A stretch of 64,000 nt of DNA from Felis catus (lineage: Eukaryota), in the NCBI RefSeq assembly GCF_018350175.1, contig NC_058368.1:42658001-42722000 (forward strand), given 5' to 3'. The translations under genes and the position numbers were made by a program. Positions 90-62,030 of the stretch are shown one piece after another (within the stretch, counting starts at the first letter, position 1; the number at the start of each line of letters is the position of its first letter). The notes beneath the pieces are model-generated. The model was not told the origin of the DNA. It did not search any database and worked only from the letters and a program-made list of their open reading frames with translations.

Positions 90-560
90 ACAGTACTGAC
101 TGTCCACTCCATCCCCTCCTCTGCCCTTTTTTTTTTTTTTTAAAGGAACAGAAACCCAATTCTATTTGGTTTAATAATGTTTCCAGCTAAGTACATGATT
201 TTCCAGGCTGCTGCCCACCTAGGTGTGGCCCAAGTGATATGCTTCTGGCCAGTAAAATGTAAATGGAATAATACTGGGCAGAACCCCAGGAGGGTGCTTT
301 ATTCTTGGATTAAATGAAACAGATTTAGCTGTCATTCCCATTTTACTTTTAGTTTCCACCTCTCCTTTTATCTTCTGGAATGTCTTTGTGATGCATGGGA
401 GTGCAGAAGCCCTGTTGCAACCGAGGATAAAAGTCACTTTTCAAACCTGCAGGCCCCATAGGTAGATGGTGCCCAAAGCATTGATGACATTGTAGGGCCA
501 TTGCCCTAGTTATGGATTCTTGTTAGAGGAGGAAAATAAATCACTTTTGCAATGTTTCCT
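90..560 (+). mobile_element. MaLR LTR remnant (MLT1J-like)
   Basis: Motifs ttttccaggctgc...ggtgtggcccaagtgatatgcttctggccagtaaaatgtaa and aaaataaatcac resemble old MLT1J/I LTRs. Heavily diverged, ends approximate. Confidence 0.55.
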
Positions 561-781
561 ATATACTTTTAAACACAGAGAAGGGAGTTGGGGAGGGCAA
601 TAAATTCATGTGGTTTGAAAAGAGGACACAAAAGATTTTAAACCAGGCAGTAATTGTGAACCTTATCATCATGCTCAAGAAATGACTTCAAGAGTCAAGA
701 CACACGCAGTTCAGGTAAGAGACAAAAAAAGAATAAAAGGGCATGTGAAGTTGAGTCACGCCTCTTTTAAAAGGTCTTCTA

Positions 782-1014
782 GGGGTGCCTGGGTGGCTCA
801 GTCAGTTTAAGTATCCGACTTTAGCTCAGGTCATGATCTCATGGTTCCTGGGTTTGTGGGTTGAGCCCCAGGTTGGACTCTGTGTTGACAGCTCATTAGA
901 GCCTGGAGCCTGTTTCAGATTCTGTGTTTCCCTCTCTCTCTCTGCCCCTCTCCTGCACACACACACTCTCTCTCAAAACTGAATGAAAGTTAAAAAAAAA
1001 AAATTAAAAAAAAA
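782..1014 (+). mobile_element. CanSINE (SINEC_Fc-type)
   Basis: ggggtgcctgggtggctcag head, (CT)n tract, A tail; TSD ggtcttct on both sides. Confidence 0.95.
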
Positions 1015-1156
1015 TGGTCTTCTCAGAATCTTGATTCAGTAACCTGTACTTGGACCAAAATAGTCACAGGTCTACCCCTCTTCTAACAAGGAGCCTGGGG
1101 AATAGACAGCTTTACCTTGGTACAGTGCCACTCCAGTAATGGAGTTTCTACCAGTA

Positions 1157-1520
1157 ATAGAAAAACCCAAGTGGCCTCAGTGAGGCTGGATAAGTTTAAA
1201 GTAACTTTTTTTTCTTCTGCAAACCTCCCCTCCTCCCTTCTTAGCTTTTTGTTCAGGAACTCAGCACCACCCTAAAGACCTGATAAAGGAGGTTGGCAGC
1301 AAATACACAATTCCTGTCAAAACAAGCAAGATGTTGTATTTCACTGTAATCGCCCCCCCCCCCCGCCCCTTCCTTGGGTCAAGTGTGCAGTATTTTGAAG
1401 GCCATAACCTGCTGTAGCTTTCCTTTGCCAGGCAAAGCAACAAAGTTATCCTTCCTCTTTATCCCAAACTCTGTCTATGCGTATTTTGCTCAGAAGCACA
1501 GACGTCAGTTTTTGACAATA
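1157..1520 (+). mobile_element. ERV1-like solo LTR (carnivore type), apparently inserted in an MLT1 fragment
   Basis: 3' end ttcctttgccaggcaaagcaacaaagtt...cccaaactctgtct...gcacagacgtcagtttttgacaata resembles the R/U5 region of carnivore ERV1 LTRs. Confidence 0.5.
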
Positions 1521-1569
1521 GGAAGGGGGACAGAAAGCTGTCACTTTATCATTTCAATAGTAAGCTCAT

Positions 1570-1783
1570 GGGGCACCTGGTGGCTCAGTTGGTTAAGCTT
1601 CAGACCTTGGCTCAGGTCAAGATCTCACTGCTGGTGAGTTGGAGCCCCATGTCGCGCTCTGTGCTGACAGCTCAGAGCCTGAAGCCTGCTTTGAGGATTC
1701 TGTCTCCCTCTCTCTCTGCCCCTCCCCTGCTCGTACTTTATTCTCTCTTTCTCTCAAAAATAAATAAAACATTTTTTTGAAAA
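1570..1783 (+). mobile_element. CanSINE
   Basis: ggggcacctggtggctcag head, CT tract, aaataaataaaa tail; TSD aata(g/t)taagctcat. Confidence 0.95.
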
Positions 1784-2067
1784 TATTAAGCTCATAAATG
1801 AGGTGGGTATATTGTTTCTACCATTCTCTTGAAAATTTGGGGGCAATTCTTGCTTTCAAGATATTTAAGATATTTTTCAATGTATGTTAGCAATGTTGCA
1901 TTATGATCTCATAATGAGATGCATTATGGTTCATCAAGAACCAAGGCCTGCATCAGTAATAAGAATCCTGAAGGGGGGGGGGGAGGGGGAAATGTGACTT
2001 TCTTGCTCTAGAATCCTGGCTAAGACAGACATGTTTTTGTCCTGCTAGTGGTTTGGTCTTTCCTAAG

Positions 2068-2550
2068 GCTGCAGGATTTTTTTTTTTTTTTTTTTTACCT
2101 CAATACCCAAGATTCCTTGTCTCACGCTTTGAAGAATGAACAGGTGGGGCACCCTGAGTAGCTCAGTCGGTTGAGTGTCCGACTTAGGCTCAGGTCATTG
2201 TCTCTCTGTGAGTTCGAACCCCTCATCAGGCTCTGGGCTGACAGCTCAGAGCCTGGAGCCTGCTTGGATTCTGTGTCTCCCTTGCTCTCTGCCCCTCCCC
2301 CACTCTGTCTCTCAAAAATGAATAAACGTTCAAAAAAATTTTTTTAATTAAAAAAAAAAGAATGAAGAGGTGGACACAAAATGAGGGGGAGCAGCTGGGC
2401 TATGATGTTACTATGCTACAGTCTTAAGAGGAACTTTATACCTGAGAGGATTTGCTGTGGTCCACAACTGTTCCAAAATGTGTGTCCTCCGCCCCAGGGA
2501 CCTCAGGTCCAAATCTTTCCCTCTGCCTATTTATCCGCTTTTTCCTATCA
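2068..2550 (-). mobile_element. ERV1-like LTR interrupted by a CanSINE
   Basis: gctgcaggatttt...gattccttgtctcacgctttgaagaatgaa[SINE]gaggtggacacaaaatgag...cctatca resembles an antisense ERV1 LTR. Confidence 0.45.
2146..2359 (+). mobile_element. CanSINE
   Basis: tRNA-like head, CT tract, A tail; TSD aagaatgaa(c/g)aggt. Confidence 0.95.
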
Positions 2551-2679
2551 TATGAATGCACTGTTTCATTGAGGGTGAAAATCCTATGTTCTGAGTCTCT
2601 TTGGATCATTGTCCAGACAGTCTCAGTTCTAAGTGTCTATCTTACTTCTTTCATTCACATCTTTAAAAACACTGCTTTT

Positions 2680-2923
2680 GGGGCGCCTGGGTGGCGCAGT
2701 CGGTTAAACGTCCGACTTCAGCCAGGTCACGATCTCACGGTCCGTGAGTTCGAGCCCCGCGTCAGGCTCTGGGCTGATGGCTCAGAGCCTGGAGCCTGTT
2801 TCTGATTCTGTGTCTCCCTCTCTCTCTGCCCCTCCCCCGTTCATGCTCTGTCTCTCTCTGTCCCAAAAATAAAAAAAAAAAAAAAAAATAAACGTTGAAA
2901 AAAAAAATTAAAAAAAAAAACAA
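2680..2923 (+). mobile_element. Young felid CanSINE (SINEC_Fc)
   Basis: CpG-rich near-consensus body (ggggcgcctgggtggcgcagtcgg...cagccaggtcacgatctc), long A tail, perfect 15-bp TSD aaaaacactgctttt (2665-2679, 2924-2938). Confidence 0.97.
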
Positions 2924-3859
2924 AAAAACACTGCTTTTTGGGTTAGTGGGAGGGCTTTAAAACAGGTCTGCAAATTCTTTGACATTTCCCCCCAGGTAGC
3001 AGATTCACAGACCAAATTAAGGTTGTTTAAAAAAAAAAAAAATGTCACAAGTTATGGACTAGCAGGGTTTGTTTTGTTTTGTTTTGGTTGTTGTTTGTTT
3101 CTGCAGTTGTTGTAACTGGAACAATTATGGGGAATACAACCCCTTAACCACGTAAAGCTCATCTTCCTAGTTTTCAGTTTCTTCATTTGTGAAATGTGGG
3201 GATTTCACCTTTCCAGAAGCATATTTCATTGAAAAATAAAAGTGTATTCAGGGGAAATATATCCTTTTTTTTTTTTCAGAAAATATTGTTTAAAAGTTTG
3301 AAAATCAGCAATAGGGTAAAGCAGAACATAAGTATCTGGGCCTAGTGTATTTGTGTGCATGACATAAAGCCAGCTATAAATTCAATTTCCATCGTTATAG
3401 GCTTTTCAAATTCTTGACTTCCTGAATCCATTTCTATAAACTCTTCAATAAATTGGTCATTTATCTAAGACTCTGATTTATTGGTATTTAGGACATTCTC
3501 CTTTATTTAAAAAAAGTTTAAGGATTCGATCTTTTAATTGTGCCTTCTGTGTTTTTCTTTAAACTCATGTTATTTCTACTTTATTCAACTTTACAAATAA
3601 TTTTTGGCATTTCTTTTTTCTCTATTGAATCTTTAAATTTTTTTAAATTGTTTTTGTTCTCTACAACTTTAAAAAAATCACTGACATTGATATCTTCCTC
3701 AAAGTTTAAGATGTTTCTCATCTTTCCCCCATTGCAAAATCAAATATTTTAAGTGACCTACATATCATGTATTCTATTCTTAAGAAATGATGTTATAAAA
3801 GGAATAGAAAGTTGTAGTGAAAAATTAGAGTAAGAACCAAGGTTTCAGAAGTTTAAAGT

Positions 3860-4440
3860 GTACTCTTGGGAGTCAGCTGCAGAAAGGGACGGGTAACAGA
3901 GGTCACTGAATGAAGAAAATAAACAGATTTGGTTGTCTGATGAATATCCAAATAGACACGTGTACTTCTCACTCTTGGGGCAATTGGAGAAAAGGAAAGT
4001 GCCTTTAGTTCAGTTTAAGCCATGAATGAATGTAAACAAGGGACTCCTCAAAGTAGATTAATGAAAAGGAGGGCAAGAGGGTAGGAATTTGAAGGATGGT
4101 ATTCTATGGAGAGAGGGTGAAAGAATAAGAATGCTTTGAAAAGCATGGTTAGAAGAATGGGGACTTTGCCTCCTGGCTTCATGGTCAATAACATGAGGGG
4201 AGATAAATGGACCAATTTCCATGCATGGAGGCTGCAGAAAGAGCAGAAGTTTCTAGTGGAAATCCAGGTTTCAGGTTAAGATGGGAAGCAAATGGAAGAC
4301 TTATAAAGAGACTAATTACAGAGAACTTTTGAAATGCAGTGAAGTTGGATTTTGCAACAAGAGTGGAAAGCGGAATATGAAAAAGCGGATGAGAAAAACG
4401 GGTAAGTCCAAGGGTAAGATAGCCTCAGGAACTGCAGCAA
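3860..4440 (-). mobile_element. L2 LINE fragment
   Basis: Purine-rich plus strand with L2-like motif ggaaatccaggtttcaggttaag; very diverged. Confidence 0.4.
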
Positions 4441-6074
4441 CAGAAAGATATGGGGGGGGGGGGGGAGGGGAAACGTCAGTGTCTACTACAGGCAGGTTGC
4501 TGGTGAGCCCAGCTGGGCGTAGCTTCGACTAGCATTTGGTACAATCTCAACAGGTTCTGTGTAACCCAAATCTAAGTGGAAAAGAGCACTGAGTGCCTTG
4601 TCCTGCTTCCTGTCTGCAGGGCTGGTCAGTGTTTTTCCACTATTGTTTGAGCCTAGACTTGCGGTGTCCCATCTGCTGTTGAGCACAGGTTACTACAGAG
4701 TGAGAGTACCTTTGGGTACTTTGTTTTCACTGAAGAGTAAAGGCAGCATCTGGCAAGTAAGGCTTCATGCTTATGAATGCTTGGTCCAGATTGAGAGTAA
4801 AAGTTATATTATCAGATCTTTTAAGATGGAGAATTCAAGCATGAATTCGGGTTTTAGTGAATAATTCTGGCAATAAAAGAAAGCTGGTACTTCAAGTAGT
4901 AAGAGCTCAGAGCACCAGTTTGGTGTTAGGTTGTATTGGCTGGCATTCTTTCTCTTTGATGTGGAAGGCAAGGAGGAGTTTTTTCTGGTAATGGGAATGA
5001 AATAATGGAGACTTTATGTGAAGCACCCAGACAAGGATGCTTCTTTCTTGGTAATCCTTGTTATTCTCTTCAACAGGCTTTTTAGCTATAATACTGTACA
5101 TTTTCAACATTAATATTCCCATTTTCTCCCTTAAATTACCCAATAAGAATGATATAAAAGTTATTTCCAGTACATTTTCATTTAAGGATAATGATCACTA
5201 ATGACTACAAAGCTGAGATTTCCTTAAGAAAGTGAATATAGCTGAAGATGAGCAAGGCTGGTGTTAGTGACAAATACTGAAGATTAGCCTTCTTATTGGG
5301 GTAGAAAAAAAGATACGTAGATGGCTAATTTGTAATGAAAATTAAAATAAAACCTACAGTTGCTAAATAGTCCTAGGCCAGCTACTGCTTAAAAAAATCC
5401 TCGGTCTCTATATTAAATCTACAGCAGTCTTTCTTCTAACTGCAACTTAAATGTTGGAGACAGCCCTAAATTTGCTGACGTTGCCAGGTCACAGGATCTC
5501 CTCTGGTACCTCACAAGCTCCTGCCCCTAAGTCACAATTTGCATATTCTCTCCAAGTCTGTAATAACTACAAAGTACAGCATGATTTTTACCTATGCCAT
5601 TTTAAATTTATACTTGGTTTAAATATATGACATTTCATAGAATTGATTTAAAAGTTGTTTAAAATAGTTGTTCTACAGATTTTCCTTTAACATTTTTATT
5701 AAATCTGGAAACCACTTCCATTTCTTTTGTTTTCAGCTCTTTATGTTGCCTACCCTTATTCTATGCAGAAGTAAATGATGAGTATTAATCCATCTCCCAC
5801 TTTTCAGCTTTTTAACCTTACTTCATCTGGCCACAGCTTCCTAAAACTCCCTCATCTGGGACTGATACTCTGCCTCTGCACTCTTGACTGGCAGCATAAC
5901 TCTCCCATCCTTTAGTCTTCTTGGCTAACCATAGAGCTAGGTTAGAACCCTATGGGTGAAGAGTTTGGAGTCCATTAGCTCCCAAGTCAGTTTTTTTTGT
6001 TTTGTTTTGTTTTGTTTTTTTACTTCCTTTGTGGTGATGGCTTTTTAAATGTAACTGGATTGTGTCTTAGAGAG

Positions 6075-6316
6075 TTTTTTGTTTTGTTTTGTTTTGTTGT
6101 GTTTTTTTTACATCAATCTTTGAGATACAGCAAACCAGGGAGGGGTAGATAGAGAGGGAGACACAGAATCTGAAGCAGGCTCCAGGCTCGAGCTGGAGCT
6201 GTCAGCACAGAGCCCACTCTTCGCATGGAGCCTGACATGGGGACCAAACCCATGAACTGTGAGATCATGACCTGATCGAAGTCAGATGTTTGATGACTGA
6301 GCCACCCAGGTGCCTC
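6075..6316 (-). mobile_element. CanSINE with small internal duplications
   Basis: Antisense body (gagggagacacagaatctgaagcaggctccaggctc...gccacccaggtgcc), (TTTTG)n tail, partial TSD gtcttaga. Confidence 0.92.
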
Positions 6317-7835
6317 GAGTCTTAGAATTCTAGTTTCATTCCAAGATACAATCAGTTATGAAGTGTGTTGCCTGGTTGAATCTCCTCCCTACCCCTCAAT
6401 CCTACAAATCTATCTGAACTGTGGGTACTTGCCTATGACAGGTATGCCTACTTACAATTGTCTGAGATCACATGGGTCTTGCCAAATTATTTGGCCTGTT
6501 TCCAGTCTGCCTTGATACACCTCTGGAACCAGTCTTTACAGATAGCAGTTCTCAATGTATCTTATGACCAGATAATAGGTTTTATACAAAGTTTTGCCTC
6601 CAAGTGGATAATTGAGCCATAAGCCTGAACTTCTAATAAGATGCCAAGGACTATACCATGCATCTTCTACTAGTCTGACAATCACACCGCCTGCATCTTC
6701 CCTAGCACTCTAATTCTGAGAAAGCTCCCCTAATCTTGAGCACAAAGAAGTCTAACCTTACCTAAGTAGAATTAAAAATGTACCCAGATACTGCAGCCTA
6801 CTTCATGGACTCTGGAAACTCCATGCTAGGTATGGTAAGGGGTATTGAAAAATGAGTATAAGTGCAACACTATATAGCCTTCTATTTGGTGTACAGAGTG
6901 TATTTGTATGTGTATATGCACACACTTGCATATATATTAACTTTGTAAGGTTTAACAGTGATAAGTTTACTATGCCCTTATAGACTACAGTATTCCTTTC
7001 TAGTAGCAAAGACCATAGAGAACAAGGATGGCATCTAAGTTATCCTTTCTCAAGGAGCACTTAAACATGCTAGTAATATAGGTACCTAGCACATATGGGG
7101 AATTATATTCATGTGAAGAGAAAGTAGAAATTCATTAGTTTAGAATAAGAGCATGGACAAAGCAGTTCGAGTAAAACTCATTTGCCTGATATCCCTTTCC
7201 ACAAGAATTATTATTTAACATTCTCTATCTTATTTCATAAGTCGACTAGGACCCTACTGAATAATTCAGTTAGGTGCAAGGACAAGTTTTTTACCTTCCT
7301 GAAACCTTGCCTGGCTTACCCACCATTAAAGGACAAGGACACTTTTTTTTTTTTTTAACATAGTATCTTTAGTTTTATGCAGAAAAAGCAGTCTCAAGAA
7401 AGTCATGACAGCATTAATAAAATATGTTTTGATTAATCTATGTTTGTCATTTGAGGTATGTTCAGTTTGGTAAAATAAACCACACAACATTGATCATTGA
7501 GCTTCAGAGGCTCAGGTAGTTAAACTGCACTGGTCACAAATAATGGGTATCAACTAATAACACTGGCCAGAAGTTTGGCTGTAGGTATTAAGGTATAATA
7601 TTTTCATTAGCATTTGGTTTGTTCTTTTCATGAAAGGATGAGAGTTGAGTTATTTAAAGAAAAAAAATTACCTACAAGGGCGATTATTCAATTATCTTAT
7701 GCATCACTGAAAGTTAATAAAATGTGTTACTTGTTTTCCTGTCTCTTTTGACCATAATTTACATGTTTAGTCATGTTTATATATTTGAATGTTGAATTGA
7801 TGTGTAATGTAGATAGATACTTTAAATTGAGTGTC

Positions 7836-8473: not shown

Positions 8474-8653
8474 GACAGGCACCCAGATGGCTCAGTTGAT
8501 TGAGTATCTGACCCTTGATTTCAGCTCAGGTCATGATCTCATGATTTGTGGGTTCAAGCCCCACATTGGGCTCCACTCTGACCACACAGGGCCTGCTAGG
8601 GATTCTCTCTCTCCTTCTTTCTCTGCCCTACTCTCTCAAAATAAACTTAAAAA
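8474..8653 (+). mobile_element. CanSINE, older subfamily
   Basis: acccttgatttcagctcaggtcatgatctc variant; TSD aaaattatagggtga. Confidence 0.92.
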
Positions 8654-9217: not shown

Positions 9218-9758
9218 ATTAATTAGCTACTGCTACATGACATATTATCCCCAAATTTAGCAGCTTAAAAAAATTGTTTTATCATAGTTCCTTGACAGTT
9301 CCATAGGTTTAGAAGCTCAGGGCTGTTTATCTGGGTCCCTGGGCTCACTGTGTCTCAAGTCTGAGATCAAGGTACAAGCTGGGGCTACAATCCTCTAGAG
9401 GTTGAACTCAAGAAGGAACCCTTTCCAAGCTCTTTCATATGATTGTCATTTCAGGTCCTTCGTGCCTATTGGTTGGAGACATCAGGTTTTTCCCCACTAG
9501 GACCTCCCCACTGAGCAGCTCAAACAGTGTCACTGGTTTGTCTCAGAGCAAGTGACCGGAGGTAGAGACGATGGAAGGGCACACAAGACAAAAGCCACAA
9601 CTCCTCAAAAGTTCATCTTGGAAGGGATAATCCATCCCTTTGCCTTCTGGTCATTACAAGATTATTGCTGGGTAAGCCCACACTTAAAGGAGGGGATTAT
9701 ACCAGACTGACTACTAAGAGACCAGAATCATTACAGCCACCCTAAGATTGCAAACACA
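9218..9758 (-). mobile_element. MaLR solo LTR (MLT1E/F-like)
   Basis: Starts attagctactgctacatgacatattatccccaaatttagcagcttaaa and ends cagccaccctaagattgcaaacaca, an antisense MLT1 layout. Confidence 0.75.
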
Positions 9759-10211
9759 TTCATATCAAATGCTTGTGCTCAATTACAGTAAAAGAAATAA
9801 GACTCCAACAGTCTGACCTCCACACTGTCTAGACTTTAAGGAACAAGTTATTTAAAAAAAAAAAAAAAATCAACTCAAACTGGCTTTATCAAAAAGAAAA
9901 AAAGGTAATTTGTTTAACAAAAAAGTCTCAGCCTCAAGGTTGTCCTGACTGTAGGTCCAGTAGGATTTGGTTGTGGCCCTGACATGTAACTGCTTTCTAA
10001 ATAGTTCTGAATGGATTCTATTGATTTTGTGTTCCATGGCCATCCCTACAACTAGGAGAAATGGAACTCCTCCCCAACTTACCCGTTCTGAGTCACCTTC
10101 CCACTCCTGGAATCCAGGGAAAAGAGACAGGAACAGAAATCTAAATTCTTTGACTAGGCAGTAGGGGAAGGAAAAAAAAACAGTACCTCGATTTTTTACC
10201 ACAATAATATC

Positions 10212-10450
10212 CACATCATTACCATTTTTTGGTGTGTGAATATTTAAAAATCTATTCTTTTAGCACCTTACAAGTATATAAGATATAGTATTAACTATAA
10301 TCAACTTGTTGTACATTAGATTCCCAGGACTTATTCATCTTCTACTGGAAGTTTGTCCTTTTTTGCCCACTATCGTCCCCTTTCCCCTATCCCTGATAAT
10401 CACCATGCTCGTCTGTCTCTAGGAGTCTGGCTTTCTAAAAATTCCAAAGT
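10212..10450 (-). mobile_element. L1 3' UTR fragment (L1MA/L1MB-like)
   Basis: tattaactataatcaacttgttgtacattagattcccaggacttattcatctt is typical antisense L1 3' end sequence. Confidence 0.8.
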
Positions 10451-12402
10451 AGAAAGGTCTGCTTTCCTTCTTTCTGCATCAAGGGTTCAAGACAGACAGT
10501 GGATTATATTAACATTTCTGCTCTACCAACTCTATCAAGAGGGCTGTGTCAAGACCGTAGTTCAGGTGATTTAGGCTCACCCTCAACTGCTTTCTCCAGA
10601 ACTTTCATTCATGACAACTTGTTCACTTTGAACAACACCATTTCCAGTCTCTCCATTAGTTAAGAAGTAGGAAGGAGAGGGAGTAATTTATTAACAGTCT
10701 TAACTGCCAACAGATATGTAAATGGGGGAAAAAAATCTTCACCTCAAAATCCAGAAGGGACTCGAGTACAGATAGCAAGCAGCTCAGAGACAAAGACATG
10801 GCACATAACTCTGGTTTAGCCCTCTGCACCAGCGTGTATCAGTAGAAAACAGAAAACTTGATAATACCATTCAGTTTTCCTCTGCTGAAAAAAAGGCAGA
10901 AGAATCCCAGAGGATAAGATCATAACACTTATTGTTTTCTAGCAAAAAACGAAAACAAAATCATAGGAACGAGAGATGCTAGAAGTTATGGGTACATCAG
11001 AGAAAAATACAGAAGACATCCTAGAAAATTTAGCCTGAGTGGAAGTCTTTTCATTTGAGATTATTATCTTCATCTCTCGTTTGGTGGCAGTGGGGATCAT
11101 ATGGAAAAGACTGAATAATGTACATATAACTTTCTAAGTTGCTACTCATACTACAGGATTTTCATTATACCCTTCACACTTCCATTATCTATTTTGGTTT
11201 AGAGAATTTTTCTTGGAATAGTTCTTACTCATTTGGTTATCTATAAAATTTCTATTTTCTTTATATTCTTTTCATAAGCATACTCATGTTTTTAATCCTA
11301 CATTCACTGAAATAGAGTAGTTATTCTATAATCAAGAAGATGATCTTTTAGGGGCCACAGTATTTACTCCACAAGTCCTAACCCTCAAGCCACCATCATT
11401 TCTTGCTTATATCTGATTGCTTTTTTCAGTATCAAAATTTCTAATTACTAGAATCAACTTGTCATCAAAATGGTTTTCTGTCTAGAAAGACTTATTCGCT
11501 CTATTTCCCATTATCTCTCCTAGATCTTCCTTGAGCTTATTTTTTCATTAACAGATTACTATCTATATATCCCATCAGTTTTATTTCCTTCCACCAGGTT
11601 TATTACTTCTACTTCACTGCATTCAGACAGCTATTGTAATATTTTGAGGTCATTTTCAAGTTTCCTTTGTTTTCTGTAGATACAGTTCTTGTAATGTTGA
11701 TATTCTTGAAAAAAAGTCAACCTGAGTTTTCTGTACCAAAAGAGGTAAGAAAAAAAAGAACAGGCAAGAAGAATCTTGACACATAAGGTGTGTTATGGAC
11801 CCATAAAAGGTAGTTTAAGTAAAAATGATATAAATCAAACCTGATTTTCCTACACAAATAATGGGAAAATATTTCTGACAGAGGCATAACTTTGAATTCT
11901 TTTAAGAAGATGCCCATATATTTTATATTTAATCCAGTATGAATACTTTTTAAAGATCAGAATACTAAATCTTTTTAAAGGTGTTAGTGGAATAAGCTTA
12001 CCAATCATATGTAATTTTACTTAATGTATTACTTATTATTGACTTATCATATTTTTACCAATGTTAAATCTTGTCTTCGTAATTCCAGACATATTTTGGA
12101 AAAATAAAGAGGAAATAAATATTTCTTAGGTCAAAATGTTCTGAAATGCTTTTTTCTTTTGGCAAGTGATAATAATGGACATGTTTGAGGAGACTTATTT
12201 CATCATGGAGCCCTCCAAAAAATGACCTGTGGAGAACTAAAAAAAATACTCAGGCTTTAAAATGGGGTGGCATTTCATAAGCAAATCAAACTATAGATTT
12301 GAATGAAATCATCTGTGTGGCTCTATGTGCTGCTGCATAGGTGATTTAAATGTAACTGGCTGAGGTTCATAAATGCAAAGTTCTAGAACCAGTTTCACTC
12401 AC

Positions 12403-12546
12403 CTGCTTCCCCTGGGGAGAGAGTTGCAAAGAGAATTTGAAATAGGTTTCAAAAGGAAGTAGTCTGTACTGAGTTTTGCCTTTTGATAACAATGTTATTC
12501 TTTCAGGTCTGGATAATATTGAGCTCTGTAAATATTCATTAAAGAC
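12403..12546 (-). other. Candidate 144-nt internal exon of an unrecognised transcript
   Basis: Minus-strand acceptor tttcttattcttacag|G (AG at 12548-12547) and consensus donor CAG|GTGAGT (GT at 12402-12401). Length is 48 codons, open in phase 0: VFNEYLQSSILSRPERITLLSKGKTQYRLLPFETYFKFSLQLSPQGKQ. Confidence 0.5.
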
Positions 12547-13139
12547 CTGTAAGAATAAGAAACTAATTTCATATTCCTTGGTATGTGGTAGGCACTTATA
12601 GTAGTTATTTATTGAATAAGTAAATGAACTAATGGTTTCTGGATAGGAAAACCACCAACTGAAAGTTAAAGTAAGTAACTTTGCTTTTAGAGAGCCCCAA
12701 ACAAGAACCTGAAATGGCCATTTGACTGCCTTCAACCCTTTTCTCACCTCAATTTATTCCAGCCCATATTTGTGTATTGAGCCATCACAGCCAGAGCAGA
12801 AGCACTAATCAAATACACCCTACCACAGATTTACTCACAGTTTACACCTGTGAAGTTGAACACACCATAAATAGTCTGCTAAGCTTTCTCTTAAATCTGC
12901 CTGCAAGTACCTTACAGGATTATGGTAATATAAAATTTTTCTACCTTCATCATATTTATAGTAATGAGTAGTTTAATTGACTTCCCTACAGCAGAACTCT
13001 CTTCCTTTTGAATTAAAATAAGAGTAAAGATGGGGATATTAAACTCTATTAATAGTTTAAGATGTAATAAATGGCTCAACCAGAAATAGCTGACTCAGAC
13101 AGACGAAGATATTTTAATTTCTCGACAATTCATGGGCAA

Positions 13140-13290
13140 GGATTGATTTCCCAAGTATAGAATTGGGGAACTGTGGGTTCTGTGCAAATTACTCCAAGGC
13201 CCAAATCAGAAACTCAGAGAGGGACTGGTGTTCTTTACCAAATTTTCCAGGTGCTTTTTGGACATTCTAGGTTTTGTCAACCATACCTTA
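13140..13290. mobile_element. MER5-like hAT MITE remnant
   Basis: ccaaggcccaaatcagaaactc...ttttccaggtgctttt resembles the MER5 core. Confidence 0.4.
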
Positions 13291-13809
13291 CAGTTTTCCC
13301 TATTGATCAAAGAAAGATTTCTTAATTATGGTTGTGCACCATCTTAAGCATTTCGTTCTATAAAATTTAGTCACATTGACAACTGACTGAAAAATTGTAA
13401 TAGTCGGAAAAACAGCTGTAGCAGCTATGATAATCACATTCTTAAATATTTTCAGGGAAAAGACAATGCAATTCATATTCATAGAGAAAAGTCATGAAAA
13501 TGACTAAAATATGTCATTAGCAGCTACAAATTCACAAGCATTAATAGTTCTCCTTTAGTGAGTTTCCATTATGCATAGTGCACTATGCCAGCTATGTCTA
13601 TATTGCTATTTTAGTAAATATTAACCACAGCACTGTGTCTTGGGAATTAGCGTCTCCTTTTCAAGTAATACTAAGGGTTAGAGAAAAACATGGCAAGCCC
13701 TCTGCCATCACACTAATCAGTGCTTTCCTTGCAGAGAGTTTGCTTTCAAAATTAGAGAAATACTATAAAAGGAGGCAAAAGACAGAAGGCAAAAACAAAG
13801 CCTACTCAC

Positions 13810-13920
13810 CTTATGAAGGAAGCAACAATAACAGAGGGTCCTGAAGATCTGGGATTCAAGCATTCCAAAGACTGAAGTCTCCCTTTTCAAAGTCAAGATA
13901 TAGCTCTCCAGTGCCTGCAA
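13810..13920 (-). other. Candidate first exon (5' boundary uncertain)
   Basis: Consensus donor AAG|GTGAGT (GT at 13809-13808), no polypyrimidine acceptor upstream, promoter motifs directly upstream. ATG at 13863 gives MLESQIFRTLCYCCFLHK ending in phase 0. Confidence 0.45.
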
Positions 13921-13931
13921 TCCCACCCACC

Positions 13932-13997
13932 CACTTCCGCTTCCTTTCCCTTTCTCAGTTCCTGATTGGAGCCTAGTTGTAAGGAGTGCCCCGCCCC
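13932..13997 (-). promoter_or_regulatory. Candidate Pol II proximal promoter (GC box, CCAAT box, tandem ETS)
   Basis: Minus strand 5' to 3': GGGGCGGGGC (13997-13988), CCAATCAG (13969-13962), GGAAGCGGAAGTG (13944-13932), all within 66 bp in an otherwise CpG-poor region. Confidence 0.55.
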
Positions 13998-15799
13998 TAG
14001 ATTCCATTCACTTCACCTGGGATGGAGGCCCTGAGGTGGGATTTACCAAACACTATCCTGTGTGGGGAAACTTACAAGGAGCACCTGCCTGCTTGGCCTA
14101 ACTAATAGCTCACAGCTGAGCCACCGTCAGCTTGGTGTGGGCAAATTTCTTCAACATCCACTATTTCTTTATTTCATTTCTATCATTTTGCCTCAGGATT
14201 TTGCCTAATCTACTCCCTCTAGTGCCCAGCTTCTCTCATCTAAAATTTAGATTTTTTTTAAATTTACATATTATTGAGCATTTTAGAAATTTTCTTTCAT
14301 TTAAGGGTGATAGTGGCATTTTAAGCCTGAATTTTAGGCAAGATTCTACTGCCAAATAATTTTCAAAATGTAAGTGCTCTTATAAGCACTCTGATGCAGT
14401 TATATTAGGAAATCTGGTTAAGCAAAATACAATAAATATAAACATCTGGCATTGAGGAAGAAATTTCTTGTGCACACTTAGAATCTCTTAGTAAACTCAC
14501 TGTTGGATACCAATTTACCCAACCCCCAACCATGACACGTGTTTGTTCATTAGGTTAACAAGGAAAATTTGGTAATGTGCTGTATTTCCATTCAGACCTC
14601 TAAATGTTCTAGCTTTTCCTGACTTGAGTTTGACGCCCTGCAGAACTTTGCTTAGAAACATGTTTGGAATGTGTTATTTTTACTACTATCACATGACTAG
14701 CCCTTATATACAAATTCTACTCTATTCAGTCATAAAATCAAATAAGAGATCATTTTGACTCCAAATTAAACAAACTATTAATCTCTTCTTCTAGAGCTGT
14801 GGATCCTATTCCCTTACTTGTTGCTCAGGAGACTTGTATTAGGTAACAAGAACCTTCCAAGATCTTGGAATGTTAATGAAAGTCCAAACTCTTCAACATA
14901 AAGAGCTACTAGCACTTGCAACAAAAAAGATCTTCTTATTCTGTCTGCATTTTTTTCTTGATTACACTTTACAAAAGATAAGACACAGGAATAGCAAAAG
15001 TCAGGCAGAAAAAGTAGAAAAACAGAGTATCTAGCATACTTTAATGGAAAGAGCAGAACCTATGCCACTGTCTGAATAGGAGAGTTAGCCAAGAGACAGA
15101 GGCCTTCTCCTCTTACTGTTATGGATATCAGCCAAGTTCGGGCAGTATACCAGTCTAATTTTGACCAGAAGCCAAAGGGATGAAACTGGGGCCAAATAGG
15201 AAAGAATTCCTCACTACCCTAGAGATTCAAAGAGAGACACAAGACAATAACTTGAGCCAGAAGTTGGAGACAGGAAAGACTAACTAGATCAGCTACAACC
15301 TTCGAGGTTGAGAGGTCTGCACACTAAAGGAGAATAATAACACGTGTGCCATGAAAGGCTATATTTTGAAAACTCCACTATCTAATGTTGTGAAGAGAAA
15401 TACACCAACTATAAAACTACTTGTAGTAAAGAAAAGATTAAATAGCAGTGCTTTTTATTTTAATTTATTTCACTGAGAAATTACAGGTGATTTGGTAAGA
15501 GATTCCTGCCTTCACAAAATATAAATACAACCACTTCATAAGTACTCTTGGTTAGGATTCAAGGCCAATATCTATAGGTGTGCTCTCAGTATCATCTCCT
15601 CTAACTTTTTCAGAGAACTTGTGAAGTTATTTTTTACTCCTTTCCTGTTAATTTGCAATCTCTATTTCTTTAACATCTAAACATATTTAAGTAAACATAT
15701 ACTATACATTTAAAACAGTCCTGAATTTTATATTCTTTCTTTAACTAACACATTCTATCTCTTCCTCCCTTTATAGCCAAGCTTTGTGAAAATTATACT

Positions 15800-15989: not shown

Positions 15990-16203
15990 CTTTTTAAAAA
16001 TATATATTTATTTATTTATGTTGAGAGAGAGAGCAGGACAGGGGCAGAGAGAGAGGGGGAGAGAGAGAATCCCAAGCAGGTTTCGCATTGTCAGTGCAGA
16101 GCCCAATGTGAGGCTTGATCCCATGAACCTTGAGATCATGACCTGAGTTGAAATGAAGAGTCAAGAGATGGATGCTTAACCGACTGAGCCACCAAGAAGC
16201 CCC
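15990..16203 (-). mobile_element. CanSINE
   Basis: Antisense body with (GA)n; TSD accattgt. Confidence 0.93.
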
Positions 16204-16607
16204 AAACCATTGTAGTCTTGACCTAGCTCCTAATACTTTAGAAATATTGCCCTTTAAAGGCCATCAAGGAGTTTTTTGTGATTAAATCCAATGAGTGTTC
16301 CTAGTTCTCATTTTTATTTGATCAGCTAAAAGCATTTGACTTCTCCTTACTTCTGTCAACATCCATACATGTCACTCTCAGGAAAGTTCACCTGGCTTTT
16401 ATCCTCTTTCAAAGGATTTTACAGTTAGTTTGTATACGCTTTACCACTGACCAGCAGTGAAAGCAGAGAGTGCAATCTGAGAGAGAGCAAGAAAGAATGG
16501 AATTTCAGGACTCTGGCTTTGGATGGGATATTTTCTTTCTTTGATTCTTGGGTTCAGATTTTAGATCAAAGACCAAAAAACACTCAATGGATAAGATAGT
16601 GTTGTTT

Positions 16608-37275: not shown

Positions 37276-38970
37276 GTAAGTGTGGCCACGGGACCAAGTT
37301 CTCTCTAATGGAGTATGGATAGTAGATGTAATTTGTGTAACATTTGATTGTCTTGCTCAAAAGGAGGTTGCTTGCCTCAATGAGATGTTTTTATTTCCAT
37401 AGGCTAAGGCATGTCTTGCAAATAACTTCTTTTGCAAATAACATAAAGATTAAATCAATTACGTAGGGGAAGAAAGGACAATGAATGGAAAGAACCTGGG
37501 TTTCCTCATAGAAGGGACGTCACAGAGGCATGATGCTTTTCAGTCTGAACCACTCCCAAACTGCATGTGTGAGAGAAATAACTCCTTTTTAAACTAGTGT
37601 ATTTTGTGGTTTATTTGTAGTCAACTTTGTCCTTAAAAGTACAATAAAGCATAACTGGAAGTGAGATGCTACTAAACAAAAACCAAATCATGTGGCAAGG
37701 CATTGCTATAAGAAAGTGCAAAGGGGTGCATGAGTGTCCTGACTGGAAAGATGATAACTTACATTGGGACACAGCTAACTTACAAGTGGGACACTTGTAA
37801 AGCTATCACCTGTGATAATCTCAGTGACAGACCATATGCTTACACGTCTGTAGCTTTACTGGAATTTGTTTAAAAAATTCAGACGAATGATGTGTTTGGC
37901 TGCTGTTCGTTGTTTTAGCAAAATTACTGGTAAAGAGAGCTGAGATCAGGCAAGAAATGAAAAGTTCTGCAATTCTATATAGAAGAAAATATAGCACTGC
38001 TAATCTCTGCCTACAATCAGCAATCATATTGACTGAGCAAGCATTATTCTGGGCCCTAAAAGTATTAAAATACCAACTGCCTTTTTATCCTAAATAGCAG
38101 AAGATGAGATTGTCACTTGCAACCTATCTCCACAGCCTCCAAATTAAACTTTTTAGACAGAAAAGGGAGCTAGTCTGTGGTAAAGCTCTGATGAAGGTGT
38201 TGCCTTATCATCCAACTGTATTGTTTCAAGATATATTTCATTTAGATACCTTCACATCATTGGAGAGTGGATGAGTCTAGGCCAGAACCAGGAAGTAGAA
38301 GAATTGATAGACTTGAGGTATATATCTAGAAGAAATCTTTGGGAATGGATACTTGAACAACAACAACAAAAAAGACTGGAATAAAATAAGATGAAAATCT
38401 CGCGTTTTCTGAGAGAAATTTACTGCTAATGAAACCAGACCAAATGTTCTGATTACCAAAGCCAGTTATTTGCATATGGTGGACTGATGTATCATGCTAT
38501 TACATTTTGGGTGAGAGGTAGTCATATAAATTGTCTGTTAGTTTATACATTATCAGGTTGCAAAGAGTCATTTATAGGCTTGAGGGAGACAACCAGACTT
38601 CACTAAGAGATCCTAAACTGAGCCAGATGCAATTAATTGTGGAATGAATCTGCATGTGGGAATAAGGAAGGACCCATGTATTTGGGTCTATTTATTCACT
38701 GCTGGTCCAAACCCATTCTTCCATTACAGTAGATTTTTGCTGGGCACATGACTGTCGAGACATTTTTCAACCTCCCTTGCAGTTAGTTATGACATTTTTC
38801 CTTCAGTATAATATGGGAATGAATGAACATCCAGCTCACTTGTTAAATGAAATTTATTTGTATTGCCTTTTCTCTCTCCACAGGCTATAGTGTGGAAAAG
38901 CACTGAGTCACATTCGACAATGCAGAAGAGAATAGCACGTTGGCAATGGCAAAGCAAAAATGTGAAATGA

Positions 38971-39428
38971 GGGGTGCCTGGGTGGCTCAGTCGGTTAAGC
39001 GTCCGACTTCATCTCAGGTCATGATCTCACGGTTGGTGAGTTCCAGCCCCGCGTCGGGCTCTGTGCTGACAGCTCAGAGCCTGGAGGCTGCTTCGGATTC
39101 TGTGTCTCCTTCTCTCTCTCTGCCCCTCCCCTGCTTGTGCTCTGTGCCTCTCTCTCAATCAAGAATAAATAGGGGCGCCTGGGTGGCGCAGTCGGTTGAG
39201 CGTCCGACTTCAGCCAGGTCACGATCTCGCAGTCCGTGAGTTTGAGCCCCGCATCAGGCTCTGGGCTGATGGCTCAGAGCCTGGAGGCTGTTTCGGATTC
39301 TGTGTGTCCCTCTCTCTCTGCCCCTCCCCCGTTCATGCTCTGTCTCTCTCTGTCCCAAAAATAAATAAAAACGTTAAAAAAAATTGAAAAAAAAAAGAAT
39401 AAATAAAACAATAAATTTTTTTTTTTTT
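38971..39428 (+). mobile_element. CanSINE whose tail hosts a younger SINE
   Basis: Outer TSD aatgtgaaatga. Confidence 0.95.
39172..39394 (+). mobile_element. Young felid CanSINE (SINEC_Fc), nested
   Basis: Near-consensus CpG-rich body; inner TSD aagaataaata (39161-39171, 39395-39405). Confidence 0.96.
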
Positions 39429-54365: not shown

Positions 54366-54443
54366 GGATGCCATAATATTTTAATGTTGTTGTTTATTTG
54401 TTAATCTGTTTCTCCACTGGGAAGGAGGAAAAAGTTGTGTTTA

Positions 54444-54657
54444 GAATTAAAAAAAAATTTTTTTTTTGAAAGAGGGAAAGAGAGACAGAGTGTGAGCAGA
54501 GGAGGGGCAGAGAGAGAGGGAGGCACAGAATCCGAAGCAGGCTCCAGGCTCTGAGCTGTCAGCACAGAGCCTGATGCAGGGCTCAAACTTACAAACTGTG
54601 AGATCATGACCTGAGTGGAAGTTGGACAGTTAACTGACTGAGCCACCCAAGCTCCCT
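54444..54657 (-). mobile_element. CanSINE
   Basis: Antisense body; degenerate TSD gaaa(a/t)agttgt(g/a)ttt. Confidence 0.94.
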
Positions 54658-54815
54658 GAGAAATAGTTGTATTTTGAAAGAACACTTGGATGGTGGAAGA
54701 TAGACTGAGAGTTCCAGTGTATAGATTGCTTTGACAGGGTATGATGGCTCCACACATCAGTTTGTGAGAAAAGTCATTGTTTATACTGAAAATCATGTAT
54801 ACACTTTAGCTCACT

Positions 54816-60889: not shown

Positions 60890-62030
60890 GCTTTTCTAGA
60901 TATTGCCAAATTACTTTCAAATGCTGCTATTTTACACTTCCATTAGGAGTATGAGACAATGCCTAATTTTATTTTTCCACATGTTTGATATTTCTTGGCA
61001 TTGTCAAGTATTTGGAAGTTCTTTCCCATATAATAATAGTGAGGATGACATCTAATTGTGTTTTAATTTTCATTTCTGTGGACACTAGTGGTGTTAGATT
61101 TGTTTGTGTTCACTGCTCATTCAGATTTCCTTCTGTGTGAATTGTTCCTAACAACAAGCAATTTTTTTATATATGCTTATAAGTATTTCTTTCAGATTAC
61201 AGCTTTTCTTGTCACTTTGTTTTTGATATCTCTATCTAGACGAAGAGTAAATTAATTGTGGTCACATTTATAATTATTTTCCTGTGCATTTTGTGCTTTT
61301 TGTTTCTTCTTTAAGATACCTTTCCCTATCCTGTGGTCATATCTTCTCTTTAAAAACTTATGAATGAATAAGTTAATTTCTTTTTTTCATTTAAAAAAAA
61401 TTTTTTTCAACGTTTATTTATTTTTGGGACAGAGAGAGACAGAGCATGAACGGGCGAGGGGCAGAGAGAGAGGGAGACACAGAATCGGAAACAGGCTCCA
61501 GGCTCTGAGCCATCAGCCCAGAGCCTGACGCGGGGCTCGAACTCACGGACCGCGAGATCGTGACGTGGCTGAAGTCGGACGCTTAACCGACTGCGCCACC
61601 CAGGCACCCCCGAATAAGTTAATTTCTAATGAAGTAAGTCAGACAGAGAAAGACTAATACTGTATTATATTGCTTGTGTATGAAATCTGAAAAAAGTTAT
61701 ATTTTCTTTTAAAATTTGAACATTTTGCTTTTCTGACTTAAATTTCAGTCTGCTTGGAGTGGGGATTTTTGTCATATGATAGGAGGGAAGAATCCAAATT
61801 TATATATTCCATGTGAACGACCAATCATCCTAGTTCTACTATGTAGAAAGTTTATTCTTTACTGCTTTGTAAAGTCAAATCTGTCATTTCCCATGTTGCC
61901 AAAATGCCATTCTATTTTGTCAATCTATACTGATGATACACTGCCTTGATACGTGGTAGAGTGAGTCTTCCCAAATTTGTTCTTCAAAATCTTCAAAAAT
62001 CTTCATTATTCTTGCCCTTTTGTTTCTCAA
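60890..62030 (-). mobile_element. Old L1 (L1ME-like) ORF2/3' fragment
   Basis: attgccaaattactttcaa, atctaattgtgttttaattttcatttctg and cccaaatttgttcttc are antisense L1 motifs. Confidence 0.6.
61382..61611 (-). mobile_element. Young felid CanSINE (SINEC_Fc)
   Basis: Near-consensus, CpG-rich; perfect 16-bp TSD gaataagttaatttct (61366-61381, 61612-61627). Confidence 0.97.

Follow-up and report, generated by a model that had tools for sequence, protein, structure and literature searches.

Does a cluster of promoter-like motifs and splice-like sites on the minus strand of cat C1 mark the start of a genuine transcript, and would such a transcript be coding? The window, by which we mean the whole stretch of DNA that was analysed (64 kb, C1:42658001-42722000; the assembly measures 2.43 Gb and contains carnivore SINEs), had been proposed to hold the 5′ end of an unrecognised gene, a promoter followed by two exons that splice into an open frame of 66 codons and belong either to a lncRNA or to a lineage-restricted microprotein gene. 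Re-reading the sequence and re-deriving the positions, we found every element listed in this original prediction at the minus-strand coordinates it had been given, and recomputing the two translations returned them exactly as they had been written (Table 1).

We give an even chance to the reading that a CpG-poor promoter drives a non-coding spliced RNA, which could be a lncRNA in its own right or could serve as an alternative leader for PCDH9, a gene lying downstream. Under this reading, a minus-strand transcript would begin near 13873 at an RNA polymerase II promoter of the TATA/initiator type that combines a GC box and a CCAAT box with an ISRE-like element and a tandem ETS site, and that is probably tissue-restricted. 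The first two exons would be spliced together and both would be non-coding, and the RNA would be either an independent lncRNA upstream of PCDH9 or an alternative distal 5′ leader of that gene.

Table 1. Positions in the window of the promoter-like motifs, splice sites, putative exons and open frame; distances are relative to the putative +1.
Feature	Position	Strand	Description
GC box GGGGCGGGGC	13997-13988	minus	Taken to be an Sp1-type consensus; -124 to -115
CCAAT box, extended form, CCAATCAG	13969-13962	minus	Taken to be an NF-Y-type consensus; -96 to -89
ISRE/IRF-like GAAAGGGAAAGG	13954-13943	minus	Adjoins the ETS pair; presumed consensus
Tandem ETS site GGAAGCGGAAGT	13944-13933	minus	-71 to -60
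TATA-like CTATATC	13903-13897	minus	Weak match; -29
Initiator-like TCAGTCT	13875-13869	minus	A at 13873 is the putative start site
Putative exon 1	13873-13810	minus	64 nt; putative 5′ end, 3′ end at the donor; 18 codons
ATG	13863-13861	minus	Within putative exon 1
Donor AAG/GTGAGT	13809-13804 (last exon base 13810)	minus	9/9 match to MAG/GTRAGT
Putative intron 1	13809-12547	minus	1263 nt, GT...AG; occurs once in the genome
Acceptor ...tttcttattcttacag/G	First exon base 12546	minus	Score 7.0
Putative exon 2	12546-12403	minus	144 nt; open in frame 0 only
Donor CAG/GTGAGT	12402-12397 (last exon base 12403)	minus	9/9 consensus match
128-codon stop-to-stop frame	12753-12370	minus	Contains exon 2

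The proximal elements stand in canonical order and at canonical spacing upstream of the putative core promoter, as judged by the ISRE, TATA, initiator, Sp1-type and NF-Y-type consensus forms that we take to be the usual ones. Individually, several of these motifs are rare in the window: the GC-box 9-mer GGGGCGGGG has 2 occurrences on both strands together, against 0.015 expected, the tandem ETS site is unique against 0.0011 expected, and the extended CCAAT box has a single occurrence. The sequence CTATAT is found 29 times on the minus strand of the window, and the TATA-like box is informative only through its spacing to the initiator-like site, whose A lies 29 nt 3′ of the TATA-like T. The ISRE-like, TATA-like and initiator-like elements had been absent from the original list.

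A first-order Markov model based on the window predicts 1.5e-11 occurrences per window and 5.5e-7 per genome for the GC box, extended CCAAT box and tandem ETS site in this order with spacings of up to 70 nt, figures to be read with the caveat that the motif definitions were set after the sequence had been inspected. Furthermore, the CCAAT box followed by the tandem ETS site within 8-28 nt has 3 instances in the whole cat assembly, and a reversed control pattern has 0. Both of the other instances are in GC-rich DNA, one of them in a clear CpG island (GC 0.73, CpG observed/expected 0.98, 38 CpG per 300 bp). The candidate promoter region (13801-14000) contains only 2 CpGs, at an observed/expected ratio of 0.17, and is thus not a CpG island. 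A scan of the gapped promoter pattern against metagenomes gave 0 matches. The motif cluster is well above chance.

The two donors directly downstream are among the best of the strand. The window contains 3139 GT sites on the minus strand, among which the exon-2 donor ranks first (score 13.3) and the exon-1 donor shares third and fourth place (score 12.3), and both are among the only 4 minus-strand sites that score at least 12 in 164 kb, that is, in the 64-kb window together with 100 kb of downstream flank. The acceptor of exon 2 is moderate, with 22 of the 4478 minus-strand AG sites in the window scoring equal or higher; a second AG is present 16 nt upstream of it (12564-12563), and no clear branch point was seen before it on reading the sequence. 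These scores come from a crude splice weight matrix, which gives the presumed true acceptor of PCDH9 exon 2 a score of only 0.9 (rank 744 of 11113), and its acceptor scores therefore merit little trust. When candidate internal exons are defined by an acceptor of at least 7, a donor of at least 11 and a length of 50-300 nt, exon 2 is the sole candidate on the minus strand of the 164 kb, and the plus strand also yields one, in a SINE-rich stretch.

Splice-like sites are also clustered around the unit. The region 10000-14000 holds, on the minus strand, 5 of 28 donor-like sites scoring at least 10, against 0.68 expected (P = 7e-4), and 7 of 66 acceptor-like sites, against 1.61 expected, in a 4-kb bin that was picked post hoc. 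The plus strand of the same region is not enriched (1 donor-like site out of 26 and 4 acceptor-like sites out of 90), and a SINE-rich plus-strand bin at 500-5500 likewise contains 5 donor-like sites. We take about 10200-10450 to be an old L1 3′ end on the same strand, which may contribute some of the clustered donor-like and acceptor-like sites. The splice sites of the putative unit are canonical GT-AG sites, with donors above chance and an acceptor only moderately so.

Collectively, the promoter-plus-donor architecture is real and non-random, and since these signals are stronger than chance they favour a real promoter with spliced exons; the transcript reading is plausible.

The strongest competing explanation is that the locus is silent as a transcription unit, being a decayed regulatory or repeat fragment, a coincidence, or an enhancer of PCDH9 that binds Sp1, NF-Y and ETS factors, with its splice-like sites unused and no stable spliced RNA made. 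We regard this as a substantial possibility that on balance we doubt. Several of the observations that count against a promoter with spliced exons speak for it: the DNA is CpG-poor, the acceptor is moderate and has an AG upstream, and the site was singled out post hoc among very many windows, as were the motifs and the bin. Polyadenylation hexamers are not depleted after the putative start, 27% of random start points doing as well, and the sole protein found in databases is the unspliced frame from a contig of 1198 nt. The old L1 3′ end may also supply some of the splice-like sites. However, chance falls short of explaining the motif trio by many orders of magnitude, the two-motif core occurs three times in the genome with its other two copies in GC-rich or CpG-rich DNA, and the best and a near-best donor of the strand follow directly downstream.

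Repeat copies were not detected either, by searches that ancient repeats would escape. The segments 13780-14100 and 11000-13800 gave self matches only when searched by BLAST against their own genome, and an nhmmer search of 12200-14400 against the 164 kb returned the segment itself and one hit at E = 0.57; only one copy of the unit exists in the genome. As a lead only, we note that the promoter may resemble MaLR-type LTRs and the region of the exon-2 acceptor a MIR-type SINE. An LTR would be expected to carry a polyadenylation signal soon after the TATA box, with an R region, but the first AATAAA or ATTAAA appears 755 nt after the TATA-like box and putative start, which argues against a solitary LTR. 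With Rfam, nothing reached the gathering threshold over the window, and only two chance-level hits were returned for 9500-14500 at E of up to 1.

A coding gene is found beyond the window, on the same strand and downstream of the candidate, which the original prediction had missed. A frame of 1042 codons contains the Pfam Protocadherin domain (PF08374, 286.6 bits, C1:42623636-42624304, minus strand), and one of its cadherin repeats aligns in one stretch of 108 residues with PDB 2ee0, ‘Protocadherin-9’, at 222.9 bits, the other cadherin repeats in the same alignment reaching about 37-47 bits each. On these matches, the 1042-codon frame is identified as PCDH9. Its ATG, at window coordinate -31368, is 45 kb downstream of the candidate start at 13873, and an acceptor-like sequence, ...ttcctcag/TGG, lies 50 nt before it (C1:42626682, window -31318). 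A CpG island at window -29700 to -28250 (GC up to 0.73, observed/expected up to 0.83) is presumably the canonical PCDH9 promoter, and the candidate start is 42 kb upstream of this island.

In a study of mouse Pcdh9 (bioRxiv 10.1101/2024.01.27.577576), a neuronal adhesion gene linked there to autism and depression, the large coding exon is named exon 2 and exon 1 has separate primers. Both of the mouse exon-2 primers match the cat exon exactly, indicating that the cat PCDH9 coding exon accepts upstream leader exons. With as many as 4 mismatches allowed, neither of the two exon-1 primers matched anywhere in the 164 kb, and the canonical exon 1 was not located there. In the literature searched, neither a study of a distal promoter of PCDH9 nor one of felid transcripts from this region came up.

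These observations make PCDH9 a candidate for the exon into which the original prediction had expected the frame to continue and which it could not locate; no third exon or 3′ end could be singled out in the region among the candidate acceptors and the frequent polyadenylation hexamers. As a sub-case of the preferred reading, the unit would be a distal alternative promoter of PCDH9, with the donor at 12403 or at 13810 joined to the acceptor at C1:42626682. The candidate exons lie upstream of the first coding exon on its strand, that exon bears an acceptor (of low matrix score) and corresponds to exon 2 in mouse, and when the join from 12403 is computed, the frame continues as WKPLNPKIQEKKINTLSWT followed by a stop. 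This adds 19 further codons and would give an 85-codon frame that is out of frame with PCDH9 and stops 8 nt beyond its AUG, an overlapping uORF that would dampen PCDH9 translation. We nevertheless consider the sub-case unlikely. PCDH9 has a CpG island of its own, a non-CpG promoter with ETS, ISRE and TATA elements does not look like a neuronal one, the mouse exon-1 primers are unmatched, and our crude matrix rates the acceptor poorly.

Distal alternative promoters and first exons of long neuronal genes are a known arrangement, of which the alternative promoters of Rbfox1 are a reported example (PMC7214753). As in such genes, the putative leader exons are tens of kb upstream on the strand of the gene, have consensus donors and could join the acceptor of the first coding exon. 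Unlike them, the junction to PCDH9 is only hypothetical here, the promoter is poor in CpG and bears ETS and ISRE-like motifs, and PCDH9 already has its CpG-island promoter 42 kb downstream. The overlapping 85-codon uORF that a join to PCDH9 exon 2 would create is reminiscent of LUTI-like regulation, in which alternative start sites yield long, uORF-bearing leaders, although the cat case is purely hypothetical. A bolder version, in which a carnivore- or felid-specific distal promoter driven by ETS and ISRE elements would feed a two-exon leader with the 85-codon uORF into PCDH9 mRNA, and, depending on tissue or interferon, would switch on PCDH9 transcription but restrain translation of the mRNA, or else would encode a de novo microprotein, seems to us very unlikely.

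The open frame itself gives little reason to expect a protein. Stops occur on the minus strand at 0.068 per codon, a rate at which any one frame stays open for 66 codons with P = 0.0097, and the 164 kb contain 391 stop-to-stop frames of at least 66 codons and 16 of at least 128 codons. The original prediction had conceded that the frame could be chance, and these counts bear it out: the open frame is not above chance and the 66-codon frame is incidental. The 128-codon frame that contains exon 2 extends 11 codons past the donor and, on the other side, begins 69 codons before the acceptor, inside the intron, and because of this run into the intron, exon 2 does not delimit its frame. With each of the 13 acceptors tried for a candidate third exon, the frame stops after 4-106 codons and gives no recognisable product.

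Searched against 1.84 billion representatives, the exon-2 peptide returned 2 hits, neither of them a relative. The first (P0001) is the unspliced genomic frame itself, with 1 member from 1 contig. The second (P0002), a 1645-residue tandem-repeat protein, was rejected as spurious since it contained no passing stretch. In a collection of 5.8 billion clusters, the exon-2 peptide matched only P0001 at lengths of 70-224 (1 of 2 candidates) and nothing at lengths of 26-84. The exon-1 frame had no match in the protein collection, where the spliced frame joining both exons was not found and only the unspliced frame is present, and a 32-mer of exon 2 scanned against metagenomes gave 0 matches. The fact that P0001 comprises only one member from one contig suggests that felid RNA contigs are barely represented in the protein collection, and the missing spliced frames therefore say little about expression. 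A frame of chance length with no protein relatives in these searches is what would be expected of a lncRNA, which has no conserved coding frame.

The microprotein half of the original prediction, that a lineage-restricted gene uses the AUG at 13863 to make a peptide of at least 66 residues (MLESQIF...PQGKQ...), is extremely improbable. The phase-0 frame is indeed open across both junctions and the AUG has a purine at -3, but the frame is neither longer than chance nor delimited by its exons, the protein searches gave no relatives, the AUG has a C at +4 and would stand only about 10 nt from the putative cap site, and every third-exon continuation tried ends without a recognisable product. The locus does share with de novo microprotein or smORF genes a short, orphan, AT-rich frame behind a promoter-like element; it differs from them in its chance-level length, in a frame that continues into the intron and in the lack of relatives.

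For the preferred reading, a non-coding spliced RNA from a CpG-poor promoter, there are comparable RNAs near the human gene, where intergenic lncRNAs such as lnc-PCDH9-13:1 / LINC00355 reportedly flank PCDH9 (PMC6085584, PMC7477441); like the putative cat transcript, they are non-coding, spliced and located in the gene-poor surroundings of PCDH9. If real, the cat unit would give PCDH9 a further promoter or an accompanying non-coding transcript upstream, and would reveal a regulatory element where genes are otherwise sparse, which would have ordinary value for genome annotation and would not be a new kind of biology. We take LINC00355 to lie on the other side of PCDH9 from the cat candidate. 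A DACH1-like Ski/Sno match is found 4 Mb away in the cat (C1:46650514), which fits the gene order on human chromosome 13.

The promoter core of the main candidate, in which CCAATCAG precedes the tandem ETS site, was found at only two other places in the whole cat genome (G000), which we refer to as L013 and L014. These two sites, probably ordinary gene promoters, are embedded in GC-rich, CpG-richer DNA.

On the PCDH9 side of the window, where window coordinates are negative, we located the large coding exon of this gene, with its ATG at position 8632 of the flanking stretch L005 and an acceptor-like site 50 nt 5′ of that ATG. From the position and minus-strand orientation of this exon, the window sits just upstream of PCDH9. 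A CpG island in the flanking stretch L004, which contains a donor-like site at window position -28437, is presumably the canonical promoter and first exon of PCDH9. Furthermore, six small CpG-rich patches were observed in otherwise CpG-poor surroundings, one of them within the window; young repeats are one possible explanation, small unmethylated islands another.

Coordinates of the features in and around the window
Feature	Location	Strand	Details
CCAATCAG + tandem ETS, L013	G000:C2:19285779-19285812		
CCAATCAG + tandem ETS, L014	G000:C16:76396830-76396863		
PCDH9 large coding exon	G000:C1:42623534-42626662 (L005 5534-8662; window about -34466 to -31338)	minus	1042-codon frame
CpG island	window -29700 to -28250 (L004 about 300-1750)		GC max 0.73; CpG observed/expected max 0.83
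Small CpG-rich patch in window	61250-61850		observed/expected 0.8-1.6 (range over all six patches)
Small CpG-rich patches outside window	about -70100 to -69550, -19950 to -19450, -14650 to -14050, -13250 to -12700, -4600 to -4100		
Carnivore tRNA-derived SINE copies	window 785-1013, 1568-1773, 2145-2345, 2660-2938, 6074-6320, 8478-8645, 16012-16204		
Further carnivore tRNA-derived SINE copies	window about 38900-39240, 54400-54800		

Two Rfam matches in the window, to the histone 3′ stem-loop (12629-12677, plus strand; 17.1 bits, E 0.74) and to SNORD79 (11867-11948, minus strand; 26.2 bits, E 0.48), were both sub-threshold and at chance level.

Among the carnivore tRNA-derived SINE copies of the window, the one at 2660-2938 shows 89-97% identity to many genomic copies and contains a 64-base A run. 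On the minus strand, the stretch at about 10200-10450 resembles an old L1 element at its 3′ end. Within 10000-14000, some of the counted donor- and acceptor-like sites overlap this stretch. On the plus strand, a SINE-rich stretch at 500-5500 holds 5 donor-like sites (score of at least 10), the same number as in the minus-strand cluster at 10000-14000.
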